Shown: positions 17,529-63,722, counted from the stretch's first letter. The stretch is DNA of 64,000 nt from a virus (IMGVR_UViG_3300037183_000141:1-64000); one strand, 5' to 3'. The notes: generated by a model from the letters alone, not told the origin. Program-made: numbers and translations.

Positions 17529-18643
17529 CGCTGCACCATCGCCTTCATATAGTGGAAGACAGAGAAGCCCGAAGGTTGGTCCTTGGGGGAAAGACAGAGG
17601 AGAGTCGGGTCCTCCGGATGGTTGTAGGAGATCCGGACGTCGCCGTCGATGTGGTCGACGATGTGCTTGAAGTTCTTGACCTGGAAGTCGGCGTCGAGCT
17701 CGCCGCGGTCATAGGAGTCGAGGGCGAAGTCCGATATCTTCTCGTTGTTGTAGTCCATCACCAGGCGGTCGGAGCTCGACTGGAAGCGGACGCGGCTCGT
17801 CCCCTCGTCCTGAACCACGGTCCCGGCCCAGGCCAAAGCCTTCGAGAGCTGGTCTTTCTTGATGACGGCTGAATAGTGGAATAGGCTATTGTCGGCCAGG
17901 ACAGCCGGGGGCCGCCTCCCGGAGACGCGCGTCAAGGACAGGCAGGAGAGCCCGTCCGAGACATACATGCGGTTCTTGTCCTGTGAGAACTGGAGAAGGC
18001 CGACCGAGGCCCTGGAGGCGAAAGTGCGGATGGCCGGGGCGTCCGTGCCGATGATGCTGAAGTCGGGGACGTCGATATCGTTCAAGCGGACGACGGTCCC
18101 GTAGAACCTCGTGGTGGAGACGGCGCAGCGCTTGTCGGAGTAGAAGTGAATCTGGTTTATCCGCATCTCCTCCTCCGTCTTTCCGACGACGGCCGAGCAC
18201 ATGAGGTGTCCCAGGACAGGCTCTATAACGTCTTTGCGGACGGCCAGGACGGACTCGACGTCGGCCGGGACGACGCCGTTCGGGACGGCGGTCCTCTTGG
18301 ACCGCTTCGCGCGGCGCTTGAGGCTTGCCTGACGGCTCTGCCCGCCCCCCTCGGCCTTGACCGAGAGGGATCCCTCGTTGATCTTAATGGTGACCGACTC
18401 GAGGTCGGAGTCGAACAGGGAGGTACGCTCCGGGGTCACGTAGAACTCCTCGGATCGGAAGTCAGCCGGGACGTCCGCGGAGACGTAGCTGACGGAAGAC
18501 CGGACATAGCGCCGCTTGTCGTACGAGAAGACGACGAGGCCGTCCTTCTCGAACCGCATGCAGAAGTCCCCGGCCTCGGGCTTCACGATCCTGGCCATCG
18601 TGAAGCCGTCGCCAACGGCCTTGGAGCTAAATACGAACTTCAT
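17525..18643 (-). CDS. dnaN: Sliding clamp (DNA Pol III beta-like), divergent
   Basis: 372 aa, three-domain size; begins MKFVFSSK, ends with the clamp-like ...FQVKNFKHIV...V.I.Y...P.LL...FHYMKAM pattern; linked to clamp-loader genes. Confidence 0.65.
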   Translation of the reverse strand: MKFVFSSKAVGDGFTMARIVKPEAGDFCMRFEKDGLVVFSYDKRRYVRSSVSYVSADVPADFRSEEFYVTPERTSLFDSDLESVTIKINEGSLSVKAEGGGQSRQASLKRRAKRSKRTAVPNGVVPADVESVLAVRKDVIEPVLGHLMCSAVVGKTEEEMRINQIHFYSDKRCAVSTTRFYGTVVRLNDIDVPDFSIIGTDAPAIRTFASRASVGLLQFSQDKNRMYVSDGLSCLSLTRVSGRRPPAVLADNSLFHYSAVIKKDQLSKALAWAGTVVQDEGTSRVRFQSSSDRLVMDYNNEKISDFALDSYDRGELDADFQVKNFKHIVDHIDGDVRISYNHPEDPTLLCLSPKDQPSGFSVFHYMKAMVQR

Positions 18644-44334: not shown

Positions 44335-44775
44335 CTACTCGTTCATCACGGTCTCGAGCGCGAACTCTTCCGGAGTGGCAGGACGGAACTTGACCAGCAT
44401 TCTCTTGACCGTCCTCCCCCAGCTGTCCCAGTGCCTTGCCCAGACAACGATGTGGAGGGAGTGGAGGACGGTCTTCCTCTCCCCGTCCCCGAAGTTCTCG
44501 TGGCCGACGTCCCACACGAACATCCCTGGCTCCACTTCGTGCTTGCCGTGCTCGACCATCACCTTCCGGTCCTTGCACTGACCGACCAGGTTGTTGATCC
44601 CGAACCTCTGCTGTCTCTCGTAATAATGGAGCGTTACCTGCCTCTGGACTGCCTTCCTCACCGCTCCCCTTCCCTGCGGGCCGAGATGGTGCCGAAGATC
44701 GAGCTCGCGTACCACCCTATTCCGGAAACGAACAAATAGTTCATCTTGTACTGTGTGTTCATGATAGACATTCAT
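44335..44775 (-). CDS. Hypothetical protein ending ...ETVMNE
   Basis: ORF 44335..44841, likely start ATG 44775. Confidence 0.6.
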   Translation of the reverse strand: MNVYHEHTVQDELFVRFRNRVVRELDLRHHLGPQGRGAVRKAVQRQVTLHYYERQQRFGINNLVGQCKDRKVMVEHGKHEVEPGMFVWDVGHENFGDGERKTVLHSLHIVVWARHWDSWGRTVKRMLVKFRPATPEEFALETVMNE

Positions 44776-45621
44776 GAAGTCGCTAGACTTTACGGAATGG
44801 GTCTTACTCAGGAAGAGGTGGCCGTCCGTCTCAGGTGCCACGTAAACTCAGTGAGAAGACTCATGAAGTCCCTTGGCCTCAAAGTGCGCCCGAAAAGCCG
44901 TATCTACGGACTCAATGAATCGTTCTTCGAGACGATAGACTCAGAAGAAAAAGCATACTGGCTCGGCTTCGCCTTGGCCGATGGATCAATAAAGAAAACC
45001 AAGTATGGAACCCCATGCTCTTTGGTCGTCGGCCTGAGCTCGGTAGACTCGCATCATCTTGAATCGCTCAAGACAGCCCTCAGATACACAGGACCTGTGA
45101 AGACAATAAACTACTTCGACAAGAGGTACGGGAAATGGTACAGACGAAGTCAGCTGGAACCATCAAGCAGAAAGCTTTGTTCTGACTTACTCGACAAGGG
45201 CTGGGACGACTTCAAAAGAAAAGGTTATATCAGAATATTAGGAGAAGTTTTGGAAAAATTTATGTCAGCTCTCCTACGGGGTCTCGTTGACGGGGATGGG
45301 TGTTTATTGCTGAATAAATATGGATCAAAGACAATAACTCTTTTTCATTTCACAGATCTTCATCAGTCGGTTGTTGAATGGGTTGCCGTTCGGGTTAAGG
45401 AGCAACTACACATACCGATTCCAAAGTTTTTGAAAAATGGGAACGGGACAAGAAAAGGTTTCCATATACGATATGCAAGACATGAACATGTTCGAGCTAT
45501 AGCTCGTTTTCTTTACTCCGGACCTCCTAGCCTGGAAAGAAAACAGACTGTCGCCGATAGATTATCGTCCGCTGTCTTTTTTCATCCAGGTTGTCGAAAA
45601 AGTGGATGCATAGAACCATAG
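44761..45621 (+). CDS. LAGLIDADG homing endonuclease with N-terminal HTH
   Basis: AYWLGFALADGS and LLRGLVDGDG; low GC; TACTGT 6 nt before ATG 44761. Confidence 0.85.
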   Translation: MIDIHEVARLYGMGLTQEEVAVRLRCHVNSVRRLMKSLGLKVRPKSRIYGLNESFFETIDSEEKAYWLGFALADGSIKKTKYGTPCSLVVGLSSVDSHHLESLKTALRYTGPVKTINYFDKRYGKWYRRSQLEPSSRKLCSDLLDKGWDDFKRKGYIRILGEVLEKFMSALLRGLVDGDGCLLLNKYGSKTITLFHFTDLHQSVVEWVAVRVKEQLHIPIPKFLKNGNGTRKGFHIRYARHEHVRAIARFLYSGPPSLERKQTVADRLSSAVFFHPGCRKSGCIEP

Positions 45622-46284
45622 GCAGAGGTCGACGATCCCGAGCGGCATCTCCGCGGGCTTCATCGCCAGGCACATCGCGTCGCAGTCCTTGAACCACCAG
45701 TGGTCGGCCAAGCGCACGAGGTGGAGGTCGGGCTTCACGCACTCGAGGATGCCGATGTTTCGGGCGAGGTGTTTGCACGTGATCTTCCCGACGTACGGGA
45801 GCTTCGTCAGAAGCTCGGGGGAGGAGAGCCGGCGCTGGCGGAAGTCCTCCCACGACTCCGTCCTCCCGACGTCGGCCGGGAACATAGCGCCCGCCATGAG
45901 CTTCGCGGTCGAGTGGACGGCCTTCGCCTTCTGCGGGTTGTTGCAGACCTTCAGGACCCGGGAGAGCATTAGGTCCTCGTCCTCCCTGCCAAGCCTATCC
46001 CACCCGCTCCCGTCCTCTCCGATACCGTAGGCGGCGGTGAGCCTCGGCATCAGCTTCGCCACGACCTTAGAGTTGAAGCCGGTGGCATGGATCACCCACG
46101 TCAGCTCAAGGAAGAAGTGGTTCGGGCCGACCTCCTCGAACTTCGTGGACCAGATATGGTCCATCTCCCTTCGGTAGTGCTTCTCCGTGAACGCTCGCGC
46201 CTTCCGGAAATACTCTTCTGGCGAGTCGGACGGCGTCGGCCCATCGGCCATCTCTTCGGAGGTCAGATCTCTCCTCGGCTCCAT
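45562..46284 (-). CDS. HhH-GPD superfamily DNA glycosylase-like protein
   Basis: LTKLPYVGKITCKHLARNIG (HhH) and VKPDLHLVRL; TAATCT 6 nt before ATG. Confidence 0.65.
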   Translation of the reverse strand: MEPRRDLTSEEMADGPTPSDSPEEYFRKARAFTEKHYRREMDHIWSTKFEEVGPNHFFLELTWVIHATGFNSKVVAKLMPRLTAAYGIGEDGSGWDRLGREDEDLMLSRVLKVCNNPQKAKAVHSTAKLMAGAMFPADVGRTESWEDFRQRRLSSPELLTKLPYVGKITCKHLARNIGILECVKPDLHLVRLADHWWFKDCDAMCLAMKPAEMPLGIVDLCLWFYASTFSTTWMKKDSGR

Positions 46285-46299
46285 GGGCCAAGATTACGC

Positions 46300-46542
46300 T
46301 CAGGCGGCCCGCGAAGGCGAATCGGACGCCGAGAACTGGAACGTGACGCACTCGTCGTCCGACCAATCTTGGCTCGACATGACGTACGGGCTCTGATCGC
46401 GGCTCCAACAGGCGAAGCAAAAAGTCCTGACTCGGCCGCAAGACGAGTACCTTCGGACGAGGCACCCATCGTCTCCGCACTCGGTGCAGGTCCCACGCTC
46501 TGGTTCCCAGAGGATGTCCATAATGTTGTTCCCAATATTCAT
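46300..46542 (-). CDS. Small Cys-containing hypothetical protein
   Basis: CTECG...C...FCFAC; GGAG-like SD upstream. Confidence 0.45.
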   Translation of the reverse strand: MNIGNNIMDILWEPERGTCTECGDDGCLVRRYSSCGRVRTFCFACWSRDQSPYVMSSQDWSDDECVTFQFSASDSPSRAA

Positions 46543-46684
46543 AGGAGGGCCCTCCCTCTCGTCGGTTGGCCTCTTTTGAAGCACGACTCTGCACTCTCCG
46601 TGCCGGACGGGCCTGAAGTTCCGAGGGCTGCAAGGCGGGAAGATTGTGGCGTCCGCCGACGCACACGATGGCAGGCTGCCGCAG

Positions 46685-46861
46685 TCAGCGCTTGGCGGTC
46701 GCCATCTCGCTCAGTGTCCTCATGACGTCGACTGCGGCCTTGCCGGCGGTCGCGGGCCTCAGGCCGTTCCTGCGCTTCACCTCGCCGGAGACCATGTCCA
46801 GGAGATCGAGGAGCTCGCCGTCCTGGAGCGTCCCGAGGTCGGCGGCGGTTGGCATCTGCAT
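46685..46861 (-). CDS. Small hypothetical protein (58 aa, below the ORF-track cutoff)
   Basis: Manual translation MQMPTAADLGTLQDGELLDLLDMVSGEVKRRNG...AKR; GC3 bias; directly downstream of the hydrolase gene. Confidence 0.55.
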   Translation of the reverse strand: MQMPTAADLGTLQDGELLDLLDMVSGEVKRRNGLRPATAGKAAVDVMRTLSEMATAKR

Positions 46862-46870
46862 GTGGGTACT

Positions 46871-47587
46871 TTACGCCACAGCGTCGGCGTAGACCTGGTC
46901 GCGGTCCTGGCCCCAGTCGTATGCGTGGTTGAGCGAGTTGCCGATGATCGTGGCGCGGATGAGCTCCCAGTCGAGGTCGACCGTCTGTGCCGCGGGCCAT
47001 TCCTTGCCCTGGAGCTTAGCCTTGAACTCGGCCTGAAGGGACTTCACGCCCTTGCCGTAGACGGCCGGGTCGGCCGTGAAATAGCCCTTGTCGTGCAGCG
47101 CCTTCACATAGCCGTCCGAGTCGCCGACCAGGAGCTCCTCCCACGCGTCAACGTAGCGGCCCGACGCGACGAAGTCGACGTACTCGTAGGCGCCGTCATA
47201 TTGGTTCGCGTACGCCCTGAACCGGGTCTGGTAGTGGCCCGGCGGAACAGGGCTCGCCTCGGCGACAACAGCTCCGCCCTTCTTGTCGAGCCGGCCGCCC
47301 GGCGCGAACCAGACGACCTTCCCGCCGAGGACCTCGTTGCAGGCGAACGAGGTATACTGGCCGACGTACGCCGTCCCGGCCTTGACGTTTCCCCAGTTAT
47401 AGCAGTGTATGTACTTCCATCTTCCGGTCTCGAGCGCGGTCTTCGCCAGCGCGAGGGAGAGGGTGTCATCGGTCGGGTGTTGCCCCTTCAGAGCGTCCAT
47501 GAGCGCCGCGCGCATCGCCTCCGCGGCGACGTCGAAGGAGAAAGGGGTCAGCTGGTCGTCCGTGAACGTGGCCGTCATCTGGTCCAT
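46871..47587 (-). CDS. Glucosaminidase/FlgJ-like (GH73) peptidoglycan hydrolase, candidate endolysin
   Basis: AKTALETG (catalytic Glu), YNWGNVKA, FRAYA, LHDKGYFTADPAVY. Confidence 0.72.
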   Translation of the reverse strand: MDQMTATFTDDQLTPFSFDVAAEAMRAALMDALKGQHPTDDTLSLALAKTALETGRWKYIHCYNWGNVKAGTAYVGQYTSFACNEVLGGKVVWFAPGGRLDKKGGAVVAEASPVPPGHYQTRFRAYANQYDGAYEYVDFVASGRYVDAWEELLVGDSDGYVKALHDKGYFTADPAVYGKGVKSLQAEFKAKLQGKEWPAAQTVDLDWELIRATIIGNSLNHAYDWGQDRDQVYADAVA

Positions 47588-47634
47588 GACGGGGATCGGG
47601 CATGAAAGGCTCGGAGTGTAACTATCCGGGCCGG

Positions 47635-48096
47635 ATGACATCCTTCAACGCCTACTATAGCAACATAAGCGCGGTGAACTCGTTCGTCCGACAGCATCTC
47701 CCGTCCGTCGAATGGCTGGTGTCGACCCGGGACGAGGACCGTGGGACCGGGAGGACCACGGCGCTCGCCCTCGCTTTCCTTCGGAACTCCTTCTCCTCAG
47801 CGCACCCGACAAGGGCCTTCGACCACGCCGATGGAGGCGGGTTCGACTCAAAACAATGGATCAAGATGAAGCTCCAGGAGATGTCGCCCGGCCTCTTCAT
47901 CGGACAGGACGGGACCCTGGAGAGCCAGCCGGCGTACGCCGCCAGCCCGTCGAGCCCACAGTTCAACGACACCCTCTTGAAGGTCCGGCAAGACTTCATG
48001 AGCGTGGTCACTTCCGCCGTAAGACTCGGGGTCGACCCGACCTGGATGATGAAGCAGCTCCAGAACGCCCTGGCCGAGTCGGTGATGAACACATGA
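47635..48096 (+). CDS. Hypothetical protein ending ...AESVMNT
   Basis: ORF 47602..48096; start 47635 or 47602; ATGA-coupled to the next gene. Confidence 0.6.
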   Translation: MTSFNAYYSNISAVNSFVRQHLPSVEWLVSTRDEDRGTGRTTALALAFLRNSFSSAHPTRAFDHADGGGFDSKQWIKMKLQEMSPGLFIGQDGTLESQPAYAASPSSPQFNDTLLKVRQDFMSVVTSAVRLGVDPTWMMKQLQNALAESVMNT

Positions 48097-48644
48097 AGGT
48101 CGTGCTCGACGTCGACGGACCGCTGACGGACTTCCACACCAAGGCGAGGCTGGTCATCAAGTCGGAGTTCGGCTACGATCTCCCCATCTCCGCGTACAAG
48201 GAATGGGACGTCACGAGCGTCCTCCCGACGCAGGCGGAGAAAGACCGGATGAACGAGCTGATCGCAAAGCCCGGCTGGGCCTCGTCCATGATCCCGGACC
48301 AGGAGGCCATGCGAGCGGTCCGCACGATGCGTAGTTACGGGGCCGACATCCTGTTCGCGACGGCCCCTCACCCGAAGAGCAAGACGTGGAAGGAAGAGCG
48401 GGAGGCTTGGCTAATCGAGCACTTCGGCGCGCACCACCTCGAGGTCGCCCACATTCATAGAAAGGACTTCCTCACCGGAGGCGTGTTCGTGGACGACAAG
48501 CCGTCGAACGTCCGCGGGTGGCAGAAGAGCAACCCGGACGGATACGGGTTTCTGTGGGCCAAGGACTACAACAGGACGGAGGTCGGCCTCATGTTCGCAG
48601 AGTCCTGGGATCCCGTTCTCTCAGAAGTCCGGGACTGGAGGTAG
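48093..48644 (+). CDS. HAD-family 5'(3')-deoxyribonucleotidase
   Basis: MKVVLDVDGPL (DxDG), ATAP, FVDDKPSN. Confidence 0.82.
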   Translation: MKVVLDVDGPLTDFHTKARLVIKSEFGYDLPISAYKEWDVTSVLPTQAEKDRMNELIAKPGWASSMIPDQEAMRAVRTMRSYGADILFATAPHPKSKTWKEEREAWLIEHFGAHHLEVAHIHRKDFLTGGVFVDDKPSNVRGWQKSNPDGYGFLWAKDYNRTEVGLMFAESWDPVLSEVRDWR

Positions 48645-48645
48645 T

Positions 48646-49119
48646 ATGGCGAAGGAGATAGAGCGGCGTTTTCTGGTGTCGGACTCGGTCAGGGAGCAGG
48701 CCCTCGGGAGGAAGACGGATATCGTCCAGGGGTATCTGTCGGCCGAGCCGGCGGTGCGCGTCCGACTGGTCGGCGGCTTCCTAGGGCAGAAGGGCTACCT
48801 GACGGTCAAAGGGCCCGGCTCCCTGAGCCGGCCGGAGTTCGAGTACGAGATCCCGGCCCTCGACGCGAAGGAGATGCTCGCCCTCTGCAGGTTCAGCCTC
48901 GAGAAGGAAAGGCGGCACGTCCTCGTGTCAGGACACATGTGGTCTGTCGACTTTTTCACCGAGGCGAGGATGAACGGTCTCATGTTGGCCGAGATCGAGC
49001 TCAAGAGCGAGGACGAAAAGTTCGTGATGCCGGACTGGGCTGGCGAGGAGGTTACCGAGAACCCATACTATTCGAACGTCTCGCTGGCGAAGATAGGGGC
49101 GCTGGTCAGGACTCCATGA
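48646..49119 (+). CDS. CYTH (triphosphate tunnel metalloenzyme) protein
   Basis: KEIERRFLV, QGYL, VRVR, LTVKG, EFEYEIP, LAEIEL, YSNVSLA; GGAGG SD. Confidence 0.9.
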   Translation: MAKEIERRFLVSDSVREQALGRKTDIVQGYLSAEPAVRVRLVGGFLGQKGYLTVKGPGSLSRPEFEYEIPALDAKEMLALCRFSLEKERRHVLVSGHMWSVDFFTEARMNGLMLAEIELKSEDEKFVMPDWAGEEVTENPYYSNVSLAKIGALVRTP

Positions 49120-49669
49120 CCTCAAGGAGGATGCGACGATCCCAGCACTCGCGGACCTTCTCCGTGCTGATGCGACGGGAGACGTGAGCGTTATACGCTA
49201 TCGACATGTTCGTGATGTGAATGGCGATGCAGCAGCCGAGGACGGAGTCGAGGATGCCCTTTGCGTCATCCGTGTATGCCTTCGTCAGTCTTTCGTCCCG
49301 TCCCCCGTCTCTCTTTTCGCAGTGAAGCCGGTCCACTCGCGAAAGCGGCATTAGGCCCTCGTGGTTGACGATAGCGGTCGTGATGATCCAGTTGGCGACC
49401 TGGATCGGGCTTGCCGCGGTCATGTTCCCCTCGTCCGTCCCAGTAATCTGGTTCTTCGAGCGGCTGTACCGGAAATGTTTAGTGAACGACGAGTTGTTGT
49501 GCGGGTGTCCATGCCGACGGAGTGGGCCCCTCGTCGACCTGAGCTCGATTTGGGACATTATCTGCCCGCCGCCAACGTTCTTGGCCTCGACGTCGACCAC
49601 AAGGTCTCCGAGCTCCTGCTGCATGAGGATGACCTGGTCTTTTTCGGGGTGGATCCAGCTCGTGTCCAT
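49106..49669 (-). CDS. Hypothetical protein ending ...LLEVMES
   Basis: 187-aa ORF converging on the CYTH gene. Confidence 0.6.
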   Translation of the reverse strand: MDTSWIHPEKDQVILMQQELGDLVVDVEAKNVGGGQIMSQIELRSTRGPLRRHGHPHNNSSFTKHFRYSRSKNQITGTDEGNMTAASPIQVANWIITTAIVNHEGLMPLSRVDRLHCEKRDGGRDERLTKAYTDDAKGILDSVLGCCIAIHITNMSIAYNAHVSRRISTEKVRECWDRRILLEVMES

Positions 49670-49723
49670 GGGGCCGTGTACTGAGGCTAGGCCTCGACTT
49701 GCGCCGAGGTGTATTCTCGGCAG

Positions 49724-50662
49724 ATGTCGTATTCTCTAAAGCAATTCATGGTGTGCATTTCCGGGTACTCCGGCTCCGGGAAGGACGAGTTCGCCCGGAT
49801 ATTCGCGGACGAGATGCAAGCGCCGAAGGTCGGCCTGGCGGACCCGGCGAAACGCCATATGGCGGACCTCTACGGGTTCACCGAAGACCAGCTCTTCGGC
49901 CCAAGCGCCTCCCGAAACGCCGGCGACCTCCGGTATCCGAAGCCGAGCTTCACGTCCTCCGGGCTGTGCATTTCCAGCGCGACCGCGGAGGAGCCCCCGG
50001 CGGAGCTCAGGGGAGAGCTGAAGCCGGGCGTCCCGTACTGGGAGATGAGCTCTAGGAAGGTGACGCCGGAGGCACACGAGGCCGTCCGAAAGCTTCCGTT
50101 CGTCCTCGGGCAGCTCGGGGACGCGACCGTCTACGTCCCGGAGGGGCACCCGTCGTTCTGGCTCTCCCCGAGGGAGAGCCTGCAGCTCTACTGCGAGCTC
50201 ATGAACACCCTGTACAGGGACACCTGGATCCGGAAGTCAGTGCACACGCACATGCGGCTCGGCGGGACCACCGAGATCGCCGGGCACCGCTTCATGTCGT
50301 TCACCTACGACAGGATGTTCGGCCTCATGGTCCCGAGCCCCGACAAGCTAATCCCGGCCCCGGAGGACGGCGGGACGTTCTTCTCGTGCTCGGCCGACTT
50401 CAGGCATAGGCACGAGTTCAACCTGGCCAGAAAGATGAGGACGGACGACTTCATCCCGGTCATGGTCCGCGTGAAGAGGCCGAGCGTGCCCGTGCCGCCC
50501 TTCGACCATCGGTCGGAGACGGAGCAGGCGACCATCCCGGACGGGTTCTTCGACTTCGTCGTGGACAACGACAAGACGGTGGAGGACCTGCACGATCAGG
50601 CGAGGGAGATCATCAAGACTGTCCAGATCCCGGGCTGGCGGCCGCTCCGGGGGTCGCTGTGA
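49724..50662 (+). CDS. Deoxynucleoside monophosphate kinase (phage type)
   Basis: ISGYSGSGKD P-loop, LADPAKR, SPRESLQ, DFRHRHE, HRSETE; TATTCT 6 nt before ATG 49724. Confidence 0.78.
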   Translation: MSYSLKQFMVCISGYSGSGKDEFARIFADEMQAPKVGLADPAKRHMADLYGFTEDQLFGPSASRNAGDLRYPKPSFTSSGLCISSATAEEPPAELRGELKPGVPYWEMSSRKVTPEAHEAVRKLPFVLGQLGDATVYVPEGHPSFWLSPRESLQLYCELMNTLYRDTWIRKSVHTHMRLGGTTEIAGHRFMSFTYDRMFGLMVPSPDKLIPAPEDGGTFFSCSADFRHRHEFNLARKMRTDDFIPVMVRVKRPSVPVPPFDHRSETEQATIPDGFFDFVVDNDKTVEDLHDQAREIIKTVQIPGWRPLRGSL

Positions 50663-51615
50663 AGCCCACGGTCGATCAGCTGATGGAGGTCGACACCATC
50701 CTCAGCCACAGCTTCTGCCCGGACGGAACGGCGTCCGCGATGATCTGCCTCGCCGCCTACGGCGCTGTGGGGAGGACGCCGGAGGTCAAGATGGTGATGT
50801 ACGACACCGTCGACCATAGCGCCGCGCCGGCGGCCCCGAAACAGCTGTGGGCGGACATCACCCCGCCGATAGCCAGATGGCAGGACTGGGCTGGGATGAG
50901 CCCGATCGTGCTCGACCATCACGAGACGGCGATGCCGGTGGTCGAGGGCCTCGGGGGCGTCTACGGAGGGCTCGACGACAGCGGGGCCAGCCTGGCGTTC
51001 AAGAACGTCATGCGAGTCCTCTCTCGCGACCGGGACGACATCGAAGAATGGGCGAAGTTCGCCCATCTCGCCATGATCCGGGACACGTGGAAGGACGCCC
51101 ACGAGGACTGGGAGGAGGGGCTCGCGGTCGGCGAGGCGCTCAACTTCTACACGCAGAAGGCGCTCTTCATCTCCTCCTCCGAGGGGAAGATGAACGTGAA
51201 CGAGATGATCCGGTTCGGCAAGGTCCTCGTCCAGAAGACCGCGAACAAGGCGTTCAAGCTCGCCCAGGGCACGACGTTCGTGGAAGCCGGAGGCCTGAAG
51301 TACGGGTTCTTCAACTGCACGGAGAAGGCGGTGTCCGAGACCGGGCATGCCCTGCTCGAGAAGCACGGGTGCAACGTCGCGGCCGGCTTCTTCTTCACCC
51401 AGGAGGGCGGGACGACCAACCTGTGCGTCTCCCTCCGGTCGAAGAAGGGCGAGGTCCCCGTCAACAAGATCGCCGAGAAGTTCGGCGGAGGAGGGCATCA
51501 GCCCGCGGCCGGCTTCCGGCTGAAGGACGCCGGGGAGATCAGCCTGAACGGGCTGATCAAGATCGTCCTCGGCGCCGCCGAGGTGGTCTTCGCGCAGGCG
51601 GTGATGGAGACGTAG
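50659..51615 (+). CDS. DHH/DHHA1 phosphoesterase ending ...AQAVMET
   Basis: HSFCPDG, VLDHH, VSLRS, GGGGHQPAAG. Confidence 0.85.
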   Translation: MKPTVDQLMEVDTILSHSFCPDGTASAMICLAAYGAVGRTPEVKMVMYDTVDHSAAPAAPKQLWADITPPIARWQDWAGMSPIVLDHHETAMPVVEGLGGVYGGLDDSGASLAFKNVMRVLSRDRDDIEEWAKFAHLAMIRDTWKDAHEDWEEGLAVGEALNFYTQKALFISSSEGKMNVNEMIRFGKVLVQKTANKAFKLAQGTTFVEAGGLKYGFFNCTEKAVSETGHALLEKHGCNVAAGFFFTQEGGTTNLCVSLRSKKGEVPVNKIAEKFGGGGHQPAAGFRLKDAGEISLNGLIKIVLGAAEVVFAQAVMET

Positions 51616-51638
51616 GCTCTTTGTCGGGCGTGAGTCCG

Positions 51639-52448
51639 ATGACCACGGGTGTAAGAGTATCCGCCATGACGCCCCTGTCCGACGTGAAGGCCTACTTCCG
51701 GGGCAAGGGCTTGGAGGGTCACTGGAGCGGGGACTCGTTCGAGGGCTCGGTCTCCGTCGTCGACGTCAAGATCAAGCCCTCGGGGAAGTCGTACTCGGTC
51801 AAGATCGAGTCCGTCGACGACCCCTCCGACTCCGACGAGGTGACGACCGGCGAGCCGCTCAAGGCCATCGCGGACTTCCTGGGACAGGACATCCCGGGCG
51901 GCGAGCACTTCGAGAAGATGTCTTCCTTCCCGTCGTTCTTCGCCCACTCTATCGCCATGGCGGCCGAGCTCGTGGGCGCCGGGATGGTCGGCAGGCGCGC
52001 TGCCGTCCGCATGCTGCGCCGCCTATCCTCGTTCCGTCCCGTCGCCGACTCGCAGCCTCAGCGCCCCGGGACCGACCTCTCGGAGCTCGAGAAGGATGCC
52101 CGGAGGAAGGGCTGGAAGGCGAAGCTGAACAAGGACGGGTACGGGGACGACGTCCTCGAGATCGACGTCTCCGGCATCTACAAGGCCGAGGTCACGCTCG
52201 ACGCCATCATGTACGACTACAAGTTCGAGCTCCGCGGCGAGTCCAGCGTGGACGAGAAGGGGTCGACCGACGACCCGATCCGCGACTTCGAGAAGTGGGC
52301 GGCCAGGTCGGACGTCAAGGAGGCGCTCGAGAGGGCGCAGTCCGCGGGCCGCGACCAGCACACGGTCCAGGCTCCCGCCGAGCCGCCGAAGAAGAAGGCG
52401 CCCCAGGCGCCGACCCGCCGTGCCCCGGCAGAAGAGCCGCTCTCGTAG
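51639..52448 (+). CDS. Hypothetical protein with two related modules (…DDP-ending repeats)
   Basis: 3' part of ORF 50847..52448; start 51639 or 51666; GC3 bias. Confidence 0.6.
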   Translation: MTTGVRVSAMTPLSDVKAYFRGKGLEGHWSGDSFEGSVSVVDVKIKPSGKSYSVKIESVDDPSDSDEVTTGEPLKAIADFLGQDIPGGEHFEKMSSFPSFFAHSIAMAAELVGAGMVGRRAAVRMLRRLSSFRPVADSQPQRPGTDLSELEKDARRKGWKAKLNKDGYGDDVLEIDVSGIYKAEVTLDAIMYDYKFELRGESSVDEKGSTDDPIRDFEKWAARSDVKEALERAQSAGRDQHTVQAPAEPPKKKAPQAPTRRAPAEEPLS

Positions 52449-52477
52449 GTCCCGACCGTCCGTCCGTAAGGGCGGAC

Positions 52478-52864
52478 ATGCCACAGTCTTCCATCACAGA
52501 GAGCGGGTTCGCGGAGGTCCAGGTGTCCCCGACGGAGGCCCAGCTCCTCCTGGGCATGATGAAGGCCCGCATCCGGCGCCTCTCTCACCTGGACTCCGCC
52601 GGGCCCGACGTGTTCGCCGAGGTGTCCCGGCTGGCCCGCATGTGCTTCGTCCTCTCCAGCGGGAAGCCGGGCGACTGGGTGACCATCCGGCGCATGTCGA
52701 AGGAGGACGTGGAGGCCGTCTACGTCCTGAACCTGGGTCAGGAGACCGAGAGGCTCCTCGCCGCCCTGAACAACGTTCGGCAGAGGGTGCGGCAGACTGG
52801 GCCGGTCGACCTGGACGTCTCCGACCAGGCCGCCAAGTCCGTGATCGAGGTGATGGAGACCTAG
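52478..52864 (+). CDS. Hypothetical protein ending ...VIEVMET
   Basis: ATG 52478 within ORF 52295..52864; GC3 bias. Confidence 0.62.
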   Translation: MPQSSITESGFAEVQVSPTEAQLLLGMMKARIRRLSHLDSAGPDVFAEVSRLARMCFVLSSGKPGDWVTIRRMSKEDVEAVYVLNLGQETERLLAALNNVRQRVRQTGPVDLDVSDQAAKSVIEVMET

Positions 52865-53784
52865 GGGAGAATGTGGACGTTCCAATGTTGCAGTATATAT
52901 TGGAACACCATGGCTAGTGTCGTGACGACGAAGATTGGGACGGTGACCTTTCGCGACAGCCCCTTTCCGGACTTGGACGCCTGAAGCTCGATGGCTTTCA
53001 CGGCGGTCTCCGTCGTTTTCTTGACATGGTTTTCGTAGGTTTTCAGACGCTCTTCGTGGACAATGTCGGCTCGGATGAGGCGGAGGATTTCGGTCGTCGC
53101 CTCCGAGCTCTGCTCTTCGAAGGCGTCGAATTTCTCGAAATGGCTTTGCATATCCTCCTTCGTTGCGTACTTCCGGATCTCCTGTTGCGTCGCGAGCGAA
53201 GCGTTTTTCGCGGCGATGGCGTCGGCCGAGGCGGCGAGGGCCGCCTGCTCGGCCTTCTCGAGGCTTTTCTGAACGGCCCACATATCCCGGTCGACGCGAG
53301 CGATCTGGTCTCCGACCCACTTCTCGAGGTCGCCTATACGTCCTTCAAGGTCGGCCTGACTGTTCGCCATATCGACCTGCATCGACATGAACGAAAACTC
53401 CGGCCCCGACTGCGGTGTGTCCTGAATGTGGTCCGCGTAGGCCCAGCGCCGTGAGTCCGAAGTCCGGACCTTGAACACGTACCACCAGGCCACCTTGCCC
53501 TCGACGGTCTTCGTCGGAAATATATGGCGCCGCGTTTTCTCCGGGTCTTCCTCGGTCAAATCCTCCCGGATTTGGTCATGGAAGCGCTCCGGCGACACGT
53601 CGAAGACGGACATCGACGCAAGCTGCTCCTCGGTGCAGCCCATTATCTTGAGCGCAAACTCGTTAACCCACTCTATGGAGCCGGAGGAAGTATCGACCTC
53701 GAAGACACCACGTTCCTTCATATCCTTTCCGAGCTTTCGGCCCTCAAGTACCCCCGGATCATGGTTCTGCTTCTGTTTCAGCAT
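52861..53784 (-). CDS. PAS-domain, coiled-coil and C-terminal transmembrane protein
   Basis: GVFEVD...IEWVNEFALKIMGCTEEQL...SVFDV.P (PAS); long heptad region; VTVPIFVVTTLAMVFQYIL. Confidence 0.65.
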   Translation of the reverse strand: MLKQKQNHDPGVLEGRKLGKDMKERGVFEVDTSSGSIEWVNEFALKIMGCTEEQLASMSVFDVSPERFHDQIREDLTEEDPEKTRRHIFPTKTVEGKVAWWYVFKVRTSDSRRWAYADHIQDTPQSGPEFSFMSMQVDMANSQADLEGRIGDLEKWVGDQIARVDRDMWAVQKSLEKAEQAALAASADAIAAKNASLATQQEIRKYATKEDMQSHFEKFDAFEEQSSEATTEILRLIRADIVHEERLKTYENHVKKTTETAVKAIELQASKSGKGLSRKVTVPIFVVTTLAMVFQYILQHWNVHILP

Positions 53785-53847
53785 GGCTTCAGATGACGGA
53801 TGAATAAAAGACCGACGTCAGAAAGAACATATTGGTAAGGTCTTCGA

Positions 53848-54219
53848 ATGCCGCCCTCGAACGCTCTATCCCTTCATTGTTCAAAATGTAAGATATCCGA
53901 AACCTGCCCGAGAAGGGGATCGAGTCCCCTCCAAAAGGGTGGTCGGTCCCTCCCACTATTATGTCGTATTGTCGGAGGATACGCAACGAGGCCCATCGAC
54001 CTAGAACGACTGTCGGACGATGGGAAGGCCCGGGCGGCCAAGGACGGACCGTGCATGAGCATCGTCGAGGTCCCGACCGTCGAGCCGTCAGGCCATGTCC
54101 ACTTCGAGATGGTAAAAGTCTTCCACCATGCCATCGTCCACCCCCGGTCGACGACGACGCTCCAGGCGGACGCCATGCTGACGCGCTCTCACAGGCAGGA
54201 ACGCCCGACCCGGAGCTAG
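53848..54219 (+). CDS. Cys-containing hypothetical protein
   Basis: CSKC...C...C; TAAGGT 6 nt before ATG. Confidence 0.6.
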   Translation: MPPSNALSLHCSKCKISETCPRRGSSPLQKGGRSLPLLCRIVGGYATRPIDLERLSDDGKARAAKDGPCMSIVEVPTVEPSGHVHFEMVKVFHHAIVHPRSTTTLQADAMLTRSHRQERPTRS

Positions 54220-54569
54220 GAAGTCAGGACATGGTGGGCCAGAACGAACTCCCTGGCCCCCTCGATGACAGACTGAATCTCCGCCTCCCGCGACTTCCAG
54301 TCGAAATACCACTTACGGATTGACCCGTCCGTCATGATGAGGCACACGACGGAAGTGTTCATGTCCACGATTTTAGTCCGGAGAAGATAGCTTTTCCAAC
54401 CCTTCCGGAAGACAGCCCCGTGAATATAGAAGTGGCCGACCCTGGGGATGGTCCTCTCCCACTCGATCTTCGATCCGGGAGGTGCAGGCCTGGGAGTCAT
54501 ATCATCACTACGGCAATGACCTGGTGACTTCCATCCTAGAAGTCCAGGATCCGATCCCTCGGTCCTCAA
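54216..54569 (-). CDS. Hypothetical protein ending ...AHHVLTS
   Basis: ATGA-coupled to the upstream HAD gene. Confidence 0.55.
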   Translation of the reverse strand: MRTEGSDPGLLGWKSPGHCRSDDMTPRPAPPGSKIEWERTIPRVGHFYIHGAVFRKGWKSYLLRTKIVDMNTSVVCLIMTDGSIRKWYFDWKSREAEIQSVIEGAREFVLAHHVLTS

Positions 54570-55150
54570 CGCAGCTTGGCCCGGTCGAGCGCGCCCTTGA
54601 CCGTGGCCCAGACGCCGTCGTCGAAGGGGCGCATAACGCGGACCATCTGCGGGTGCTCGAATCCGCGGTTCGAGGGGCCGTCGAGCATGAGGACAACTCC
54701 GCGCGGACGATGCCTGAGCCAGGCCAGCGCGAACTTCGGATAGTCGTCGAACAGGACGCGCCCGTACACGAGGCCCTTGTCATGGCCTACGGTCACCGGG
54801 AGGTCCGGAACGTGCTCGGCGCACCACTCGACCTTCTCGGTCCAGGCGGAGTGAGTCTTCCTCGGCCCTTTCGTCAGGATGGAGGTCTCGAACCCGGACT
54901 CGACGATCATGTCGAGTACCTTGAAGCCGTCCTCTATCTTCCTAAGGTTCCTCCAGAACCCGGGCTGACTCTTCACCAGCCTCATGCGGGCCTCAGCCCA
55001 CGGCGGGACGCCACGGGAGTGAGCCTCATAAAGGGGCTCCCCGGGGGACATGAGTGGCTCCAGTCCCTCCCTCAGTCCTGCGTCATAGTCGGCGATCGTC
55101 CCGTCCATGTCGACAAGGGCGATCTCGGTGGCCTCCGGCGAGTTTCCCAT
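54566..55150 (-). CDS. Second HAD-family 5'(3')-deoxyribonucleotidase
   Basis: IALVDMDGTIAD, SILTK, VLFDDYP; TACAAT 6 nt before ATG 55150. Confidence 0.82.
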   Translation of the reverse strand: MGNSPEATEIALVDMDGTIADYDAGLREGLEPLMSPGEPLYEAHSRGVPPWAEARMRLVKSQPGFWRNLRKIEDGFKVLDMIVESGFETSILTKGPRKTHSAWTEKVEWCAEHVPDLPVTVGHDKGLVYGRVLFDDYPKFALAWLRHRPRGVVLMLDGPSNRGFEHPQMVRVMRPFDDGVWATVKGALDRAKLR

Positions 55151-55183
55151 CGCCGGATTGTACACCGTTCGGCGGACGGCCTA

Positions 55184-55435
55184 TCAGGCGCCGTGCTTGC
55201 TGACCTTGAGCAGGTTGTCGAGTTCCTTGTGGAAGGTCGACTCGTCTCCGGAGTCGAGTGCCCCCATGACCTTGTCGAGCGCGCCCTTGACCATGCTCTT
55301 TCCGGGACCGGACTGCGGGAGCGCCTGCTGCTCCTGCTGAGCCTGCTGCTCCTGCTGCCCTTGTTGCTGCTCCTGCGCGCGAATGAAGCGAGAAGCGACC
55401 CTCTTGGCCATGTCGTCGTGGGTGATGTTTGCCAT
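55184..55435 (-). CDS. Small Gln-rich hypothetical protein
   Basis: MANITHDDMAKRVASRFIRAQEQQQ...; AAGGA SD. Confidence 0.6.
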   Translation of the reverse strand: MANITHDDMAKRVASRFIRAQEQQQGQQEQQAQQEQQALPQSGPGKSMVKGALDKVMGALDSGDESTFHKELDNLLKVSKHGA

Positions 55436-55537
55436 GATAGTTTCCTTGGACCTCGTTCGTGCAGATCGGCGAAATGATCCGCGCCGCGGGTCTTACGGGA
55501 AATCAAAGGCCCATCGGGGAGGGCGTAAGCTCCGCCC

Positions 55538-56086
55538 ATGACGATACAGGAGGCCACGCTGGAGGAAATTAGATCGGTCATAAGGCCGGATAAGAAGAGC
55601 CTTTTACGCTGCAAGGCAGGAAGGCCGAGGAGGATAGAGACGGTCTTCCCGGCGAACGCGCTTCTCGTCTCGAAGACTCACATCCACCTGGCGAACTGGC
55701 TGGCCGCGTGGGAGTTCGACCCGACCCCGGAGCTGGAAGGCGCGATCCAAGACGGGATGTCCTATGTGTTCAGGGCCGCGTGGACGTCCGAGACGTACGA
55801 GTTCAATGGGTGCACATACCTGTCCATGGAGCAGATATTCGACCCCGACACGGACAGATATCGTTTCCATCCACTGTGTAAACCGTCGTACGACGGGCAC
55901 AGACACAGGTGGAACGGCCATAACGGAAAGCTTGAGGTCCTGTGCGAGACCAGCTCCGGGGCGACGGGAGAGAAAATGCTGAAGCTGATGAAGGACCGAT
56001 CGTTCCTGCTGAAGCGAAGCGGCCGCGACGCCGGGACCTACAGACTCCCAAGGGGGTGTTACTCCTGGGAGGAGAAGACTCTCTAA
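55538..56086 (+). CDS. Hypothetical protein
   Basis: TAAGCT 6 nt before ATG. Confidence 0.62.
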   Translation: MTIQEATLEEIRSVIRPDKKSLLRCKAGRPRRIETVFPANALLVSKTHIHLANWLAAWEFDPTPELEGAIQDGMSYVFRAAWTSETYEFNGCTYLSMEQIFDPDTDRYRFHPLCKPSYDGHRHRWNGHNGKLEVLCETSSGATGEKMLKLMKDRSFLLKRSGRDAGTYRLPRGCYSWEEKTL

Positions 56087-56361
56087 GCCTTTCCGCCCTG
56101 GGTTAGAGTCACCATCGGTCCGGCGAGAAGGGTGAGGGGGCCGTCCTTTCCGGGGGCGGCCGGGATCTCGATACCCTGACGGGCGATCTCCGCGATAAGG
56201 GACACCACACGGGGGAGCTCGCCCATCGAAGAGCGGGCCAGAAGGACAGCAAGGTCGTCCTCACCCGCCCTCACGACGTCCTTCCACAGGTCTTCCCAGC
56301 CGGCGAGAGCCGCCTGCGGGGAGTCCGATGGAACCCTGGCGACGCAGATTACGACCTTCAC
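56083..56361 (-). CDS. Hypothetical protein
   Basis: Packed ORF in a minus-strand run. Confidence 0.5.
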   Translation of the reverse strand: MKVVICVARVPSDSPQAALAGWEDLWKDVVRAGEDDLAVLLARSSMGELPRVVSLIAEIARQGIEIPAAPGKDGPLTLLAGPMVTLTQGGKA

Positions 56362-56372
56362 GCCTTTCGAGG

Positions 56373-56765
56373 TCAGGACAGTGAAGAGGATGTCGTCCCC
56401 TGGCCGAAGACCGTCCCCCAGCTCACGGCCGTGTCCTCATTCCGGAAGCCGAGCCTCCGGAGTATCTCGCACATAGCCCAGGCGTCGACGAGGTGCCTCG
56501 GGTGGCGCATGAGGTCGGCTACCCCGGTCCCGACCCTCTTCCGAAGCTCCACGAGCTCCATCCCGTCGGCCAGGACTAGGGCCGTGGCGAGGTCGTCGTT
56601 CACGTCGAAGGAACGGCGCTGGACGACGGACTCCGGGAGCGCCCCGTGGATCCGAAGCCCCTCTACGAGGGGAAGGATGGGGACCATCTTCCTCTCGGTC
56701 AGGATTTCCTTCGTCAGGTCGAGGATCTGGTCTAGCGCCATTCCGGACATTACGTTAACGCTCAC
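56373..56765 (-). CDS. Hypothetical protein
   Basis: TAAGGAGGT SD inside the upstream gene; GTG start overlaps the upstream TGA. Confidence 0.6.
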   Translation of the reverse strand: MSVNVMSGMALDQILDLTKEILTERKMVPILPLVEGLRIHGALPESVVQRRSFDVNDDLATALVLADGMELVELRKRVGTGVADLMRHPRHLVDAWAMCEILRRLGFRNEDTAVSWGTVFGQGTTSSSLS

Positions 56766-57295
56766 GTGTCCATGACCTCCTTAGCAAACCGTAAGGCCAC
56801 CAGGTAGGCGAGGGCCTTGAGGGACGATATGCAGGCCCTGGCGACGGCGGCCTGCTTTTCCTCCGGGTTCTTCGACGCCGCGGCCTCCATATACCTGGCC
56901 AGGCACTCCTTTCCCATCTCCCTCCAGTCGCAGTCGATCCCGGTCCCCCGGAACCCATCTGGGCCGAACATCTTCGTCCTCGTAAAGTCCTTATAGGGGT
57001 CGAAGACCTCCAGCGACATCAGGGACAGGACAATGTCGAAGGCCTCCTTGAAGTTCCCGGGGACATAGGCCTGGTACTCCGGGAGCGCCAGGAGCTCCCA
57101 GTCGTCAGCGAGCATGTCCCGGGACTCGAGCTGGGACGACGGCCACGTGTGCTCGGAGGACCCGGCCTTCATGGTGAAGTGATCGGACCGGACACCGGCT
57201 ATGAGCTCGACGGTAATATGGTGTCCGGCCGGCCAGGGCCTCCTGCGGGCCCTCCGTCCGGCGCGGAGCGCAGGAAGGGCGTCCTCTATCTTCAT
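56762..57295 (-). CDS. DUF2829/Tad2-like domain protein with C-terminal extension ending ...KEVMDT
   Basis: MKIEDALPALRAGRRARRRPW...W.SSQ...DMLADDWELL matches the DUF2829 pattern; TAATCT 5 nt before ATG 57295. Confidence 0.65.
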   Translation of the reverse strand: MKIEDALPALRAGRRARRRPWPAGHHITVELIAGVRSDHFTMKAGSSEHTWPSSQLESRDMLADDWELLALPEYQAYVPGNFKEAFDIVLSLMSLEVFDPYKDFTRTKMFGPDGFRGTGIDCDWREMGKECLARYMEAAASKNPEEKQAAVARACISSLKALAYLVALRFAKEVMDT

Positions 57296-57322
57296 CACCG
57301 AGATTACACCGTAGTGTTGGCC
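57296..57322. promoter_or_regulatory. Back-to-back leaderless promoters in a 27-bp gap
   Basis: TAATCT (minus, 57301-57306) 5 nt before ATG 57295; TAGTGT (plus, 57312-57317) 5 nt before GTG 57323. Confidence 0.65.
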
Positions 57323-57727
57323 GTGACCAGAAACTGTCGCCACTGCGGGAAGCCGCTTTTGAAAGAGAACGCGACGATGGCCGACGGATGCCCCTGTAAT
57401 TCTGCACGAGGGGTCAACCATGGGATCGTGGACAAGCTTACCTGTACGTGTAATGTCTGCGACCCGGCCGGAACCGGCGGATCTCGCCTCAGGTCCACAA
57501 CGCCGACGATCCGCTCTCTGTCCGACTTCGGGGAAGGAGTTTATGTAGTGTATGGGGTGTGCGTGTGCGGGCTAGACACGAGCATGCAATGGTCGTACAC
57601 GATGCCGGACGGGTCCGTCATCCCGAGGTGCGGAAAGTGCGTCCTCAACAGTCAGTCTGAAAGGCTTGAGAAGATCTCGAAGGAGATGTTCGACTATTTC
57701 ACGGCCCTCCACGTGATGACCGCGTAG
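57323..57727 (+). CDS. Cys-rich (multi-Zn) hypothetical protein ending ...LHVMTA
   Basis: CRHC, CPC, CTCNVC, CVC, CGKC; TAGTGT 5 nt before GTG 57323. Confidence 0.6.
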   Translation: MTRNCRHCGKPLLKENATMADGCPCNSARGVNHGIVDKLTCTCNVCDPAGTGGSRLRSTTPTIRSLSDFGEGVYVVYGVCVCGLDTSMQWSYTMPDGSVIPRCGKCVLNSQSERLEKISKEMFDYFTALHVMTA

Positions 57728-61818: not shown

Positions 61819-62442
61819 CTAACGTCCGGTACTGAGGGCCTCGGATATCTCCGTCCGGAGGGCCCCGCGCTTCCACACGGGCCCGTACGAGGAAGTAGAG
61901 CGCCCGGCGAGACAGTCCAGGGCGTAGCTTCTGGCGGTCGGGCCTATGGCCCCGCGGACGGCCAGGATGTCCAGGTCTATCTCCGCGTCCAAAGGAAGGG
62001 GGTCCGAGGCCGGCGTCGCGACAGTGTCCTCGAGCGCGGCGCCCGTCGGGCCGACTGCGCCCGCGGCGCCCTGGAGCGAGAGCTCTGACGCACGGCGCGA
62101 GTCGGAGTTGGCCATGTTCGCGCCGGTCGCTTTCGCGACCATATATATGTAGTGCCGGAGGGAGGACTTCCTAGGGTCGTGCGCGGAGGGCATGTGGTTG
62201 CGCGCGGCCATGCGGACGCAGACCTCCTGGAAGTAGTCGTCGATCTCGTACCCGGGAGGGGCCCTAAAGTACTTGCGGACGACCTCGCGCACCTCGGACG
62301 CCGCCGAGGATAGGTCGACACCTAGCTGCGTCCCGTCCTCGGCGCACCTGGGCCACGGCAGGTGCGGCGCCCTGGGGGACGCCTCGTATGTCCCGGCTTT
62401 CTTGAGGGCCCTGTACTCACGTGCTCGCTCCGCGGATGACAT
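61819..62442 (-). CDS. ECF sigma-factor-like protein (region 2 recognisable, region 4 degenerate)
   Basis: EIDDYFQEVCVRM...HDPRKSSLRHYIYMVAK; TAACGT 8 nt before ATG. Confidence 0.55.
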   Translation of the reverse strand: MSSAERAREYRALKKAGTYEASPRAPHLPWPRCAEDGTQLGVDLSSAASEVREVVRKYFRAPPGYEIDDYFQEVCVRMAARNHMPSAHDPRKSSLRHYIYMVAKATGANMANSDSRRASELSLQGAAGAVGPTGAALEDTVATPASDPLPLDAEIDLDILAVRGAIGPTARSYALDCLAGRSTSSYGPVWKRGALRTEISEALSTGR

Positions 62443-62822: not shown

Positions 62823-63722
62823 ATGACTTCCATGAAGGTAGGGGGTTGGCGGCGCGAAGACCAAAGCAGTAGAGCGGAGAAGATCGCCTCCCAGCCTGAC
62901 TTCTCGGTCGTGAGGGCGAAGATGGGCTCGTACCTCGCCCCGGGTAGCGAGCCGTCTGACCTCCGACGGTTCTCCCCGCCGAAGAGGCATAACCAGCTGA
63001 CGTCGAACTCGTGCGTCGCGAACTCAATGACCAGGGCGCTCGAGAATAAGCGCATCCAGAAGGCATACTATACGGCCCTGTCGACCGGGACGGCCGACGC
63101 CGCGGCGCTCGCGGCGGCGCAGTCCCAGCACGTCGCCCTCTCAAGGCTCGCCCTATACTACCTCTCCCGCGAGGAGATGAACCCGCCGGAGACGGACAAG
63201 GACGGGGGGACGATCATCTCGATAGCCGCCGAGCTCCTCCGGACCTTCGGCGTGTCGCGCGAGGACCCGGACCCGTCGGACCCGTCCGCGGCGTCATGGC
63301 CGTTCGACCTCGCGAAGCTCTTTGTCCCGCCGTCGTGGAAGGCGATGCGCGACGCCGCGGTCCACAAGATATCGTCGTGGTCCAGGATCTCGAGCTCCGG
63401 GAGCCAGCGCGTTGACGACGTCATCGCGGCGCTCTCGGCCGGAAACGTCGTCGTCTACGGGACGCAGGTCGGGAGCAACTGGCAGAAGTACGACGGGAGC
63501 TCCGTCATCCAGCCCGTGGTCGGGACCCCAGAGGGGGGCCATGCGACCATGCTGTGCGGCTGGGACCCCTCCGGGTTCTTCTGGGACGAGAACTCCTGGG
63601 ACAACAGCTGGGGCGACGACGGGTTCTGCAAGGTCTCGTCCGACGTCGTCGCGAGCGACCAATCGTCTGATTTTGTCGTCGTGCAAGGTGGGTGGGAGCC
63701 CTGGCACCAGCAGGCGGCGTAA
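62823..63722 (+). CDS. Papain-family (C1A) cysteine protease
   Basis: HNQLTSNSCVANS (Gln/Cys), GGHATMLCGW (His), ENSWDNSWGDDGF (Asn). Confidence 0.88.
   Translation: MTSMKVGGWRREDQSSRAEKIASQPDFSVVRAKMGSYLAPGSEPSDLRRFSPPKRHNQLTSNSCVANSMTRALENKRIQKAYYTALSTGTADAAALAAAQSQHVALSRLALYYLSREEMNPPETDKDGGTIISIAAELLRTFGVSREDPDPSDPSAASWPFDLAKLFVPPSWKAMRDAAVHKISSWSRISSSGSQRVDDVIAALSAGNVVVYGTQVGSNWQKYDGSSVIQPVVGTPEGGHATMLCGWDPSGFFWDENSWDNSWGDDGFCKVSSDVVASDQSSDFVVVQGGWEPWHQQAA

Follow-up and report, generated by a model that had tools for sequence, protein, structure and literature searches.

Why should eight otherwise dissimilar proteins of one virus end in almost the same residues? The question is raised by a 64,000-nucleotide stretch of viral DNA (IMGVR_UViG_3300037183_000141, positions 1-64000, hereafter the window), part of a 76,463-bp single-contig virus record whose DNA occurs in peat metagenomes, whereas the public runs listed as containing it include no RNA data set. 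An original prediction, made from this DNA alone, held that eight open reading frames (ORFs) between 44,335 and 57,727 carry a shared C-terminal tag, with valine and methionine or leucine placed four and three residues from the end (-4/-3, the last residue being -1). Each terminus was checked and all eight are as claimed, namely TVMNE, SVMNT, EVMES, AVMET, EVMET, HVLTS, EVMDT and HVMTA, and three further tagged genes lie on the contig outside the window, bringing the total to 11. The pattern thus reads V or I, M or L, any two residues and stop, and we think it likely that this ending is a recognition tag, acting at the level of the protein, for a partner that all its carriers share. The tagged genes are given below, the last three from our own gene calls.

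44335..44661, minus strand: family A, about 100-108 aa, ending FALETVMNE (ORF open up to 44841)
47602..48096, plus strand: family B, 153-164 aa, ending LAESVMNT
49106..49669, minus strand: family C, 184-187 aa, ending ILLEVMES, converging on a CYTH gene
50659..51615, plus strand: DHH/DHHA1 phosphoesterase, ending FAQAVMET (Pfam DHHA1 7e-10; phrog_4771)
52478..52864, plus strand: family E, 128 aa, ending SVIEVMET
54216..54500, minus strand: family F, 94 aa, ending LAHHVLTS
56762..57421, minus strand: Tad2-like domain protein with a C-terminal extension, ending FAKEVMDT (Pfam Tad2-like 8.6e-9)
57548..57727, plus strand: family H, small Cys-rich protein, ending TALHVMTA (start uncertain, ORF open from 57149)
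64552-64917, minus strand: tagged gene ending FVITS
64924-65370, minus strand: tagged gene ending TVMKG
65772-66215, minus strand: tagged gene ending HVMST

Is such an ending more frequent than expected? Our own codon-bias gene caller places 102 genes on the 76,463-bp contig, and nine of their 102 products have VM at -4/-3, against a frequency of 0.0023 for this dipeptide in the proteome (binomial P = 3e-12). About 19% of all VM dipeptides of the proteome are located at this position, and not one is seen at the other offsets between -2 and -11, so the ending is enriched across the contig proteome. It is also confined in space: 11 of the 34 genes at 44.3-66.3 kb are tagged and none of the 68 elsewhere (Fisher P = 1.6e-6), with roughly a third of the accessory genes tagged in the contig and in its uncultured relatives alike. 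The 44 genes at 1-44 kb, including those for the exonuclease, the helicase, the clamp loader and the ligase halves, are all without it, just as had been noticed for the replication genes; the idea of a phage-wide signal, however, has to be given up, for the tag is restricted to the accessory block at 44-66 kb. When two unrelated phage loci were passed through the same pipeline as a control, 0/29 and 1/29 genes were tagged.

The contig itself is best seen as a fragment of a huge phage, since the contigs of its syntenic relatives span 274-393 kb. It carries replication genes (a RecD2-like helicase, ribonucleotide reductase, clamp-loader subunits, a beta-type clamp and a FEN-like exonuclease), the ligase halves and a ThyX gene, and no structural genes were found on its 76 kb. 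No close relative was found among annotated phages (megablast, tblastn), IMG/VR or species genomes, and the relatives used here were taken only from metagenome assemblies, via exact-protein look-ups. Five syntenic ones were compared for the tag (L004, L006, L011, L014 and L007, with DHH protein identity falling from 89% to 67%), and more distant loci were reached by following a papain-like peptidase discussed below.

Is it the residues that are kept, or the DNA encoding them? A codon tally of 39 tails from eight genomes gives GTC 19, GTG 14, GTT 1, GTA 1 and ATC 4 at -4, and ATG 32, CTG 5 and CTC 2 at -3; the use of both GTG and GTC for valine, remarked on from the start, is therefore real, with GTA added on the contig and GTT as well in the relatives. 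Position -7 is A, V, L, I or M in all 39 tails, and positions -2 and -1 vary freely, being mostly E/T/K/N and S/T/E/G, respectively. At the DNA level, high information is limited to codon positions 1 and 2 of residues -4 and -3, with weaker values at -7 and -11; it is low at wobble positions and at background from +3 past the stop, whilst stop-codon usage is alike in tagged and untagged genes. Orthologues in syntenic positions keep the tag despite synonymous changes and V/I and M/L replacements, with codons and the last two residues changing (tagged orthologues per locus: L004 4/11, L006 8/21, L011 8/31, L014 6/27, L007 6/30). Conserved residues with changing codons, and no information at wobble or after the stop, mean that selection acts on the protein, as had been proposed. 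The possibility of a cassette boundary or recombination repeat was rejected, as there is no identity past the stop codons, where from +3 on the information does not rise above background, and the flanking sequences have nothing in common.

The behaviour of single families bears this out. Family A orthologues end in TVMRE (L004), TVMNE (L011) and DVMLG (L007), those of family C in EVMKS (L004, L006) and EVLES (L007), and those of family F in HILTS (L006), HVLGS (L011, L014) and SVMTG (L007); the Tad2-like protein ends in EVMEW in L006 and in QVMRG in L011 and L014, and is without the tag in L007, and the 75-aa family H orthologue of L006 ends in MHVMTA, with GTC replacing GTG. In family E the ending is [VI][ML]E plus one residue in 13/13 database hits, where V is invariant, and in L007, where it is I; it is lost in the distant L008 and L010. 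Family B can be aligned down to 23-30% identity, with a mean column identity of only 30%, and still 14 of its 18 aligned homologues end in VMxx and three more have VI, VL or LM there. As to the DHH protein, P0002 and L011 have the tag and P0003-P0013 do not, and the tails of close orthologues, which are of equal length, gain or lose it via substitutions. Here, then, the tag arises and decays by point changes, since close orthologues differ in it with no change of tail length; gain and loss by point changes is how short linear motifs evolve.

How unrelated are the proteins that carry it? No similarity among them is detected by BLAST, and to this extent the earlier description of them as unrelated is right. 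Yet the products of 47602-48096, 64924-65370 and 65772-66215 seem to resemble one another in a helical hairpin that takes up about 35 residues at the C-terminus, and for these three the description is too strong. Only two tagged proteins have known domains, DHHA1 and Tad2-like, and Pfam and PHROGs gave no match for 8/11 of them.

It is plausible that the tails are helical. Tagged tails are poor in Pro and Gly (0.27 versus 1.55 in untagged ones, P = 6e-5) and are net acidic. That they cap amphipathic helices, as first suggested, is not upheld: the hydrophobic moment is 0.23 in tagged and 0.29 in untagged tails, with no separation between the two. In the AlphaFold2 (AF2) model of family B the last helix runs from residue 135 to 152 of 153, and the mean pLDDT (predicted local distance difference test) is 91-95 over residues 121-150 and 77 for the last three residues. 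This model had no significant match in the PDB (Foldseek), and in the ESM Atlas it matched only unnamed viral clusters, below 0.9.

A second form of the tag exists in a sister lineage. Three loci of this lineage have tails of the type [VILM]-H-x-x, mostly ending in L or R, with counts of 3 in L012 (VHxR), 3 in L015 (VHxL) and 11 in the 41 genes of L016, and the VM type is found there only 1, 0 and 0 times, respectively. The two forms are seen on the same families: the DHH protein ends in AVMET here and in EEVHAL (L015) or EEVHDQ (L016) there, and family B ends in ESVMNT here and in ETVHGR (L012) or DEVHDL (L015) in the sister lineage (hhalign 95.7%). A small Cys-containing family is VH-tagged in L012, L015 and L016 and, as with the VM type, the codons for both His and Val vary. 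Such a joint change of the tag across unrelated families is what would be expected of a single co-evolving reader, and a purely structural feature is hard to reconcile with it. Of the 40 genes of the locus L013 (382-kb contig JAWVHB010000038.1), 14 have VM-type and 4 VH-type tails, and most of these belong to an array at L013:300-8300 of about 18 paralogous genes coding for 60-86 aa, whose products share the pattern H...CxxCG...CxP, a hypervariable middle and a tail of the form EVMxS (or VHxS). Immediately downstream of this array come a 494-aa gene and the papain-like peptidase.

What could such an ending do? As we see it, the tag would form the last turn of a terminal helix, with a small or aliphatic residue at -7, V or I at -4 and M or L at -3 (H in the sister lineage), and the chain would end exactly two residues after -3. 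The spacing to the C-terminus would be constant because one partner reads the side chains together with the chain end. This common partner, from the phage or its host, would handle the tagged proteins as a group, be it by recruiting, sorting or processing them, the group including nucleotide-metabolism, anti-defence and small Zn-finger-like proteins. We infer that there is one such reader. The original prediction of a sorting or recognition signal is upheld in part: the signal lies in the protein and behaves like a recognition tag, being conserved among orthologues, gained and lost by point changes on the DHH protein and switched between VMx[ST] and VHx[LR] from lineage to lineage, and none of the three outcomes named beforehand as refuting it (no enrichment, no conservation among orthologues, DNA identity past the stop) was observed. 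Its phage-wide range is wrong, and its amphipathic nature is not supported. Taken further, the ending might be a lineage-specific four-residue C-terminal code (VMx[ST]/VHx[LR]) by which a dedicated phage-encoded reader, possibly the papain-like peptidase, would recognise and jointly process or recruit as much as a third of the accessory proteins, the small Zn-finger-like arrays among them; this fuller version we put forward only tentatively.

Several points weigh against a common reader. No reader was identified. The concerted switch rests on three loci of one lineage, with L013 mixing VM and VH, and it could be due to block inheritance from shared ancestry and not to co-evolution with a reader. 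The hairpin of the three similar proteins is possibly homologous, which would leave fewer independent cases, and the counts cover 102 genes of a contig that is only part of a genome of about 270-380 kb. Moreover, there are several tails that are not amphipathic but hydrophobic on every side, so that here and there the helix may lie against its own protein and be less accessible.

Could the partner be the peptidase? It is encoded at the end of the window, with a lipoprotein gene 3' of it.

62823..63722, plus strand: papain-family (C1) cysteine peptidase (Pfam Peptidase_C1)
63809-64126 (genome coordinates): gene for a Cys-rich lipoprotein of about 100 aa, lipobox seen

According to this explanation the tag is a substrate mark for the C1 peptidase of the clade, with V/I at P2 and M/L/H at P1, which we regard as unlikely; a variant, in which the last two residues are removed as by a dipeptidyl carboxypeptidase or the tail is held in the cleft, is likewise doubtful, and so is the further idea that peptidase action would activate, time or tether the tagged proteins. 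Q58, C64, H240 and N257, an intact catalytic set of the enzyme, are conserved in 33 homologues, and its AF2 model is a confident papain fold (pLDDT 91.5). Hardly met with outside this phage clade (71 hits), the family shares contigs with the tagged family E; tagged genes are only a few kb away, the tagged array of L013 coming directly before it, and one of its subclades tracks the VH form. Removal of a dipeptide would also account for the fixed two-residue spacing, and one study describes cathepsin B, itself a C1 peptidase, as taking dipeptides off the C-terminus of a substrate whose P2 residue is Val (PMC9454093). However, no equivalent was identified in the phage enzyme of the occluding loop, which closes the primed side and binds the carboxylate of the substrate; its nearest structure is xylellain (3OIS) and not cathepsin B, and the match between its subclade and the tag form cannot be separated from phylogeny. 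The Cys-rich lipoprotein gene follows it in every lineage, and a PG_binding_1 gene lies near the pair in distant relatives, which makes an envelope or lysis cassette likelier; the two may form such a cassette or, alternatively, a protease-inhibitor pair. The peptidase itself looks cytoplasmic. It is the only concrete candidate for a reader or processing enzyme, and a weak one, its membership in a tag system being putative.

Two other genes, those for a 260-aa protein (51666-52448) and for a PAS-coiled-coil-membrane protein, were considered as readers and set aside, since they are conserved neighbours with no other evidence in their favour. The second of them is the following.

52861-53784, minus strand: tail-anchored protein (PAS domain at the N-terminus, coiled coil, membrane helix at the C-terminus)

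This gene is kept in all relatives covering the spot but L012, where no match was seen, and it converges on family E except in L009 and L013, the two stops overlapping by 4 nt in the window.

Could the tag instead shorten the life of its carriers? As a C-terminal degron it would let a host or phage AAA+ protease, or an adaptor, limit the lifetime of early accessory proteins. Non-polar C-terminal degrons are known, and a tag that is portable, easily gained and lost, at the extreme C-terminus and found on accessory proteins only would suit such a role; the sister-lineage form, ending in Leu, even comes nearer to the non-polar degrons. The main form, however, ends in polar and variable residues, unlike LAA-type tails, the tail sits within an apparently structured helix (AF2 model of family B), and the genes linked to it include none for a protease or adaptor. 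We find this reading improbable, and specifically an ssrA-like or non-polar degron motif, in which the last two or three residues are non-polar and adjoin the free carboxylate, was rejected: the main form has polar, variable residues at -2 and -1, and the Leu end occurs only in the sister lineage.

Much the same is our estimate of a loading signal, by which cargo would enter the capsid or virion for co-injection, or some other phage-built compartment. Huge phages package many proteins, and here a diverse cargo, including a protein with a Tad2-like, anti-defence-type domain and many small proteins, carries one short C-terminal helix. Against this, the tagged genes belong to a nucleotide-metabolism and accessory block away from structural genes, a shell or capsid gene is absent from the contig, and the sequence is not known to resemble any loading peptide. 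Such a role is hardly to be expected.

There may also be no reader at all. The ending would then be part of a structural C-terminal helix or module, spread by descent or domain shuffling, whose V and M pack in the protein's own fold. The hairpin-like pattern common to three tagged proteins, the tail helix of family B packed in a confidently modelled hairpin, and the all-round hydrophobicity of several tails are in line with this. It leaves unexplained, however, why proteins of unrelated fold should all stop precisely two residues after the motif, how a DHH enzyme with untagged homologues came by the tag through point changes, and the joint switch from M to H and from S/T to L/R across families, and we therefore hold it to be quite improbable.

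Finally, a signal in the nucleic acid, with GTSATG six bases before the stop acting as an extended Shine-Dalgarno sequence for coupling or as a promoter or RNA signal, is highly improbable and largely refuted. In its favour, GGTGAT can pair with the 3' end of 16S rRNA, and in 4/11 tagged genes (and not just two, as first thought) the next start codon on the same strand is no more than 6 nt from the stop; that of the NT5C nucleotidase gene, for one, overlaps the stop of family B in ATGA. Against it, three tagged genes converge on an opposite-strand neighbour, as predicted, and four have gaps of 23-222 nt, leaving 7/11 with no start at Shine-Dalgarno distance. Moreover, GTC, GTT, GTA, ATC, CTG and CTC are all met with as variants, information is missing from the wobble positions and conservation ends with the stop, the replacements are conservative at the amino-acid level, and 6 of the 14 genomic GTSATG-N6-stop sites are away from gene ends. 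Shine-Dalgarno, promoter and cassette-boundary readings are thus poorly supported, since codons, gene context and orthologues all favour the protein.

Does a recognition tag of this kind resemble anything already described? One parallel in principle is the sliding clamp. Tails of T4 gp43, gp33 and gp55 on gp45, and the motifs binding the bacterial beta clamp, likewise put one short hydrophobic and acidic peptide, often at the extreme C-terminus, on unrelated proteins that meet at one hub, and the phage studied here encodes its own clamp (17525-18643, phrog_947) and clamp-loader subunits. The beta-clamp-binding consensus is Q-phi-x-[L/M]-[F/L] or Q-phi-x-[L/M]-x-[F/L] (PMC11139829). The clamp was set aside as an unlikely reader: 0/39 tails fit this consensus, there is no Gln in register, the last residue is mostly S/T/E/G, and the tag sits on accessory enzymes and small proteins and not, as clamp-binding motifs do, on replication or repair enzymes of one replisome, for all replication proteins of the contig lack it.

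Other systems share single traits with the tag. The acidic C-terminal tails of T7 gp2.5 and gp4 dock on DNA polymerase and resemble it as terminal tails on several phage proteins with key residues near the free C-terminus, but they are disordered acidic runs with an aromatic end and serve the replisome, whereas here we have a helix end, V-M and non-replisome proteins. In the dilysine retrieval signal KKxx-COOH, read by COPI, two defining residues at -4/-3 are followed by two free positions and a free carboxylate, as in our case; it is, however, a signal of eukaryotic membrane traffic, made of basic residues and with no homology to the tag, so that the likeness concerns only the geometry of reading. 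Encapsulin and microcompartment peptides are short terminal helices that send diverse enzymes to one shell, and they share the hydrophobic i, i+3, i+4 spacing; their sequences differ, their register to the chain end is not fixed, and no shell gene is linked to the tag. A PDZ-binding motif, which has a hydrophobic last residue and its specificity residue two places before it, was rejected as well, given that in the main form the last residue is S/T/E/G/A and the hydrophobic pair lies two residues further in, and no PDZ gene was seen among the proteins scanned. The literature searched gave no description of a shared C-terminal motif of this kind in phages, huge ones included. The principle of terminal docking peptides is known, then, and this tag matches none of the compared systems by sequence, client set or linked genes.

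Some further genes of the contig and of its relatives deserve to be recorded.

44746-45621, plus strand: LAGLIDADG-type homing endonuclease ORF of lower G+C content (Pfam LAGLIDADG_3, 3.6e-6)
8767-9591: sigma-like protein with two region-4 domains
34517-36166: sigma-like protein, 549 aa, with a weak region-4 hit
61819-62442: sigma-like protein with a weak region-2 hit
14362-14835, minus strand: putative phage metallopeptidase (PF18894, 2e-25)

The LAGLIDADG ORF opposes a run of minus-strand genes, between a 240-aa gene and the tagged family A, and is absent from the same place in L004, L007 and L011. L007 has, at L007:16811-19309 on the minus strand, a gene for a PurZ-type adenylosuccinate-synthetase-like protein of 832 aa with intein-splicing and LAGLIDADG hits on record, which would be a putative intein inside purZ. 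The three sigma-like proteins suggest phage-directed transcription classes, and the putative metallopeptidase gene sits within the replication operon, adjoining that of a Toprim protein. In the same accessory block of a relative an AcrVA2-like protein (family hit on record) is encoded at L015:6946-7953 on the minus strand.

What would the tag mean for phages of this kind? To our knowledge hardly any short linear motifs have been recorded for phage proteins. If real, the tag defines a functional class among the dozens of huge-phage proteins that lack an assigned function, one that would include a DHH phosphoesterase and a protein with a Tad2-like domain, of a family named for countering the Thoeris defence. 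The tail peptides offer a direct handle on the partner, as bait, and the existence of two forms provides a built-in control of specificity. If the fuller version with a dedicated phage-encoded reader is true, this would be a virus-encoded system of post-translational addressing with a co-evolving code. The tag suggests that terminal address tags may be a common and overlooked means by which phages organise their accessory proteins.

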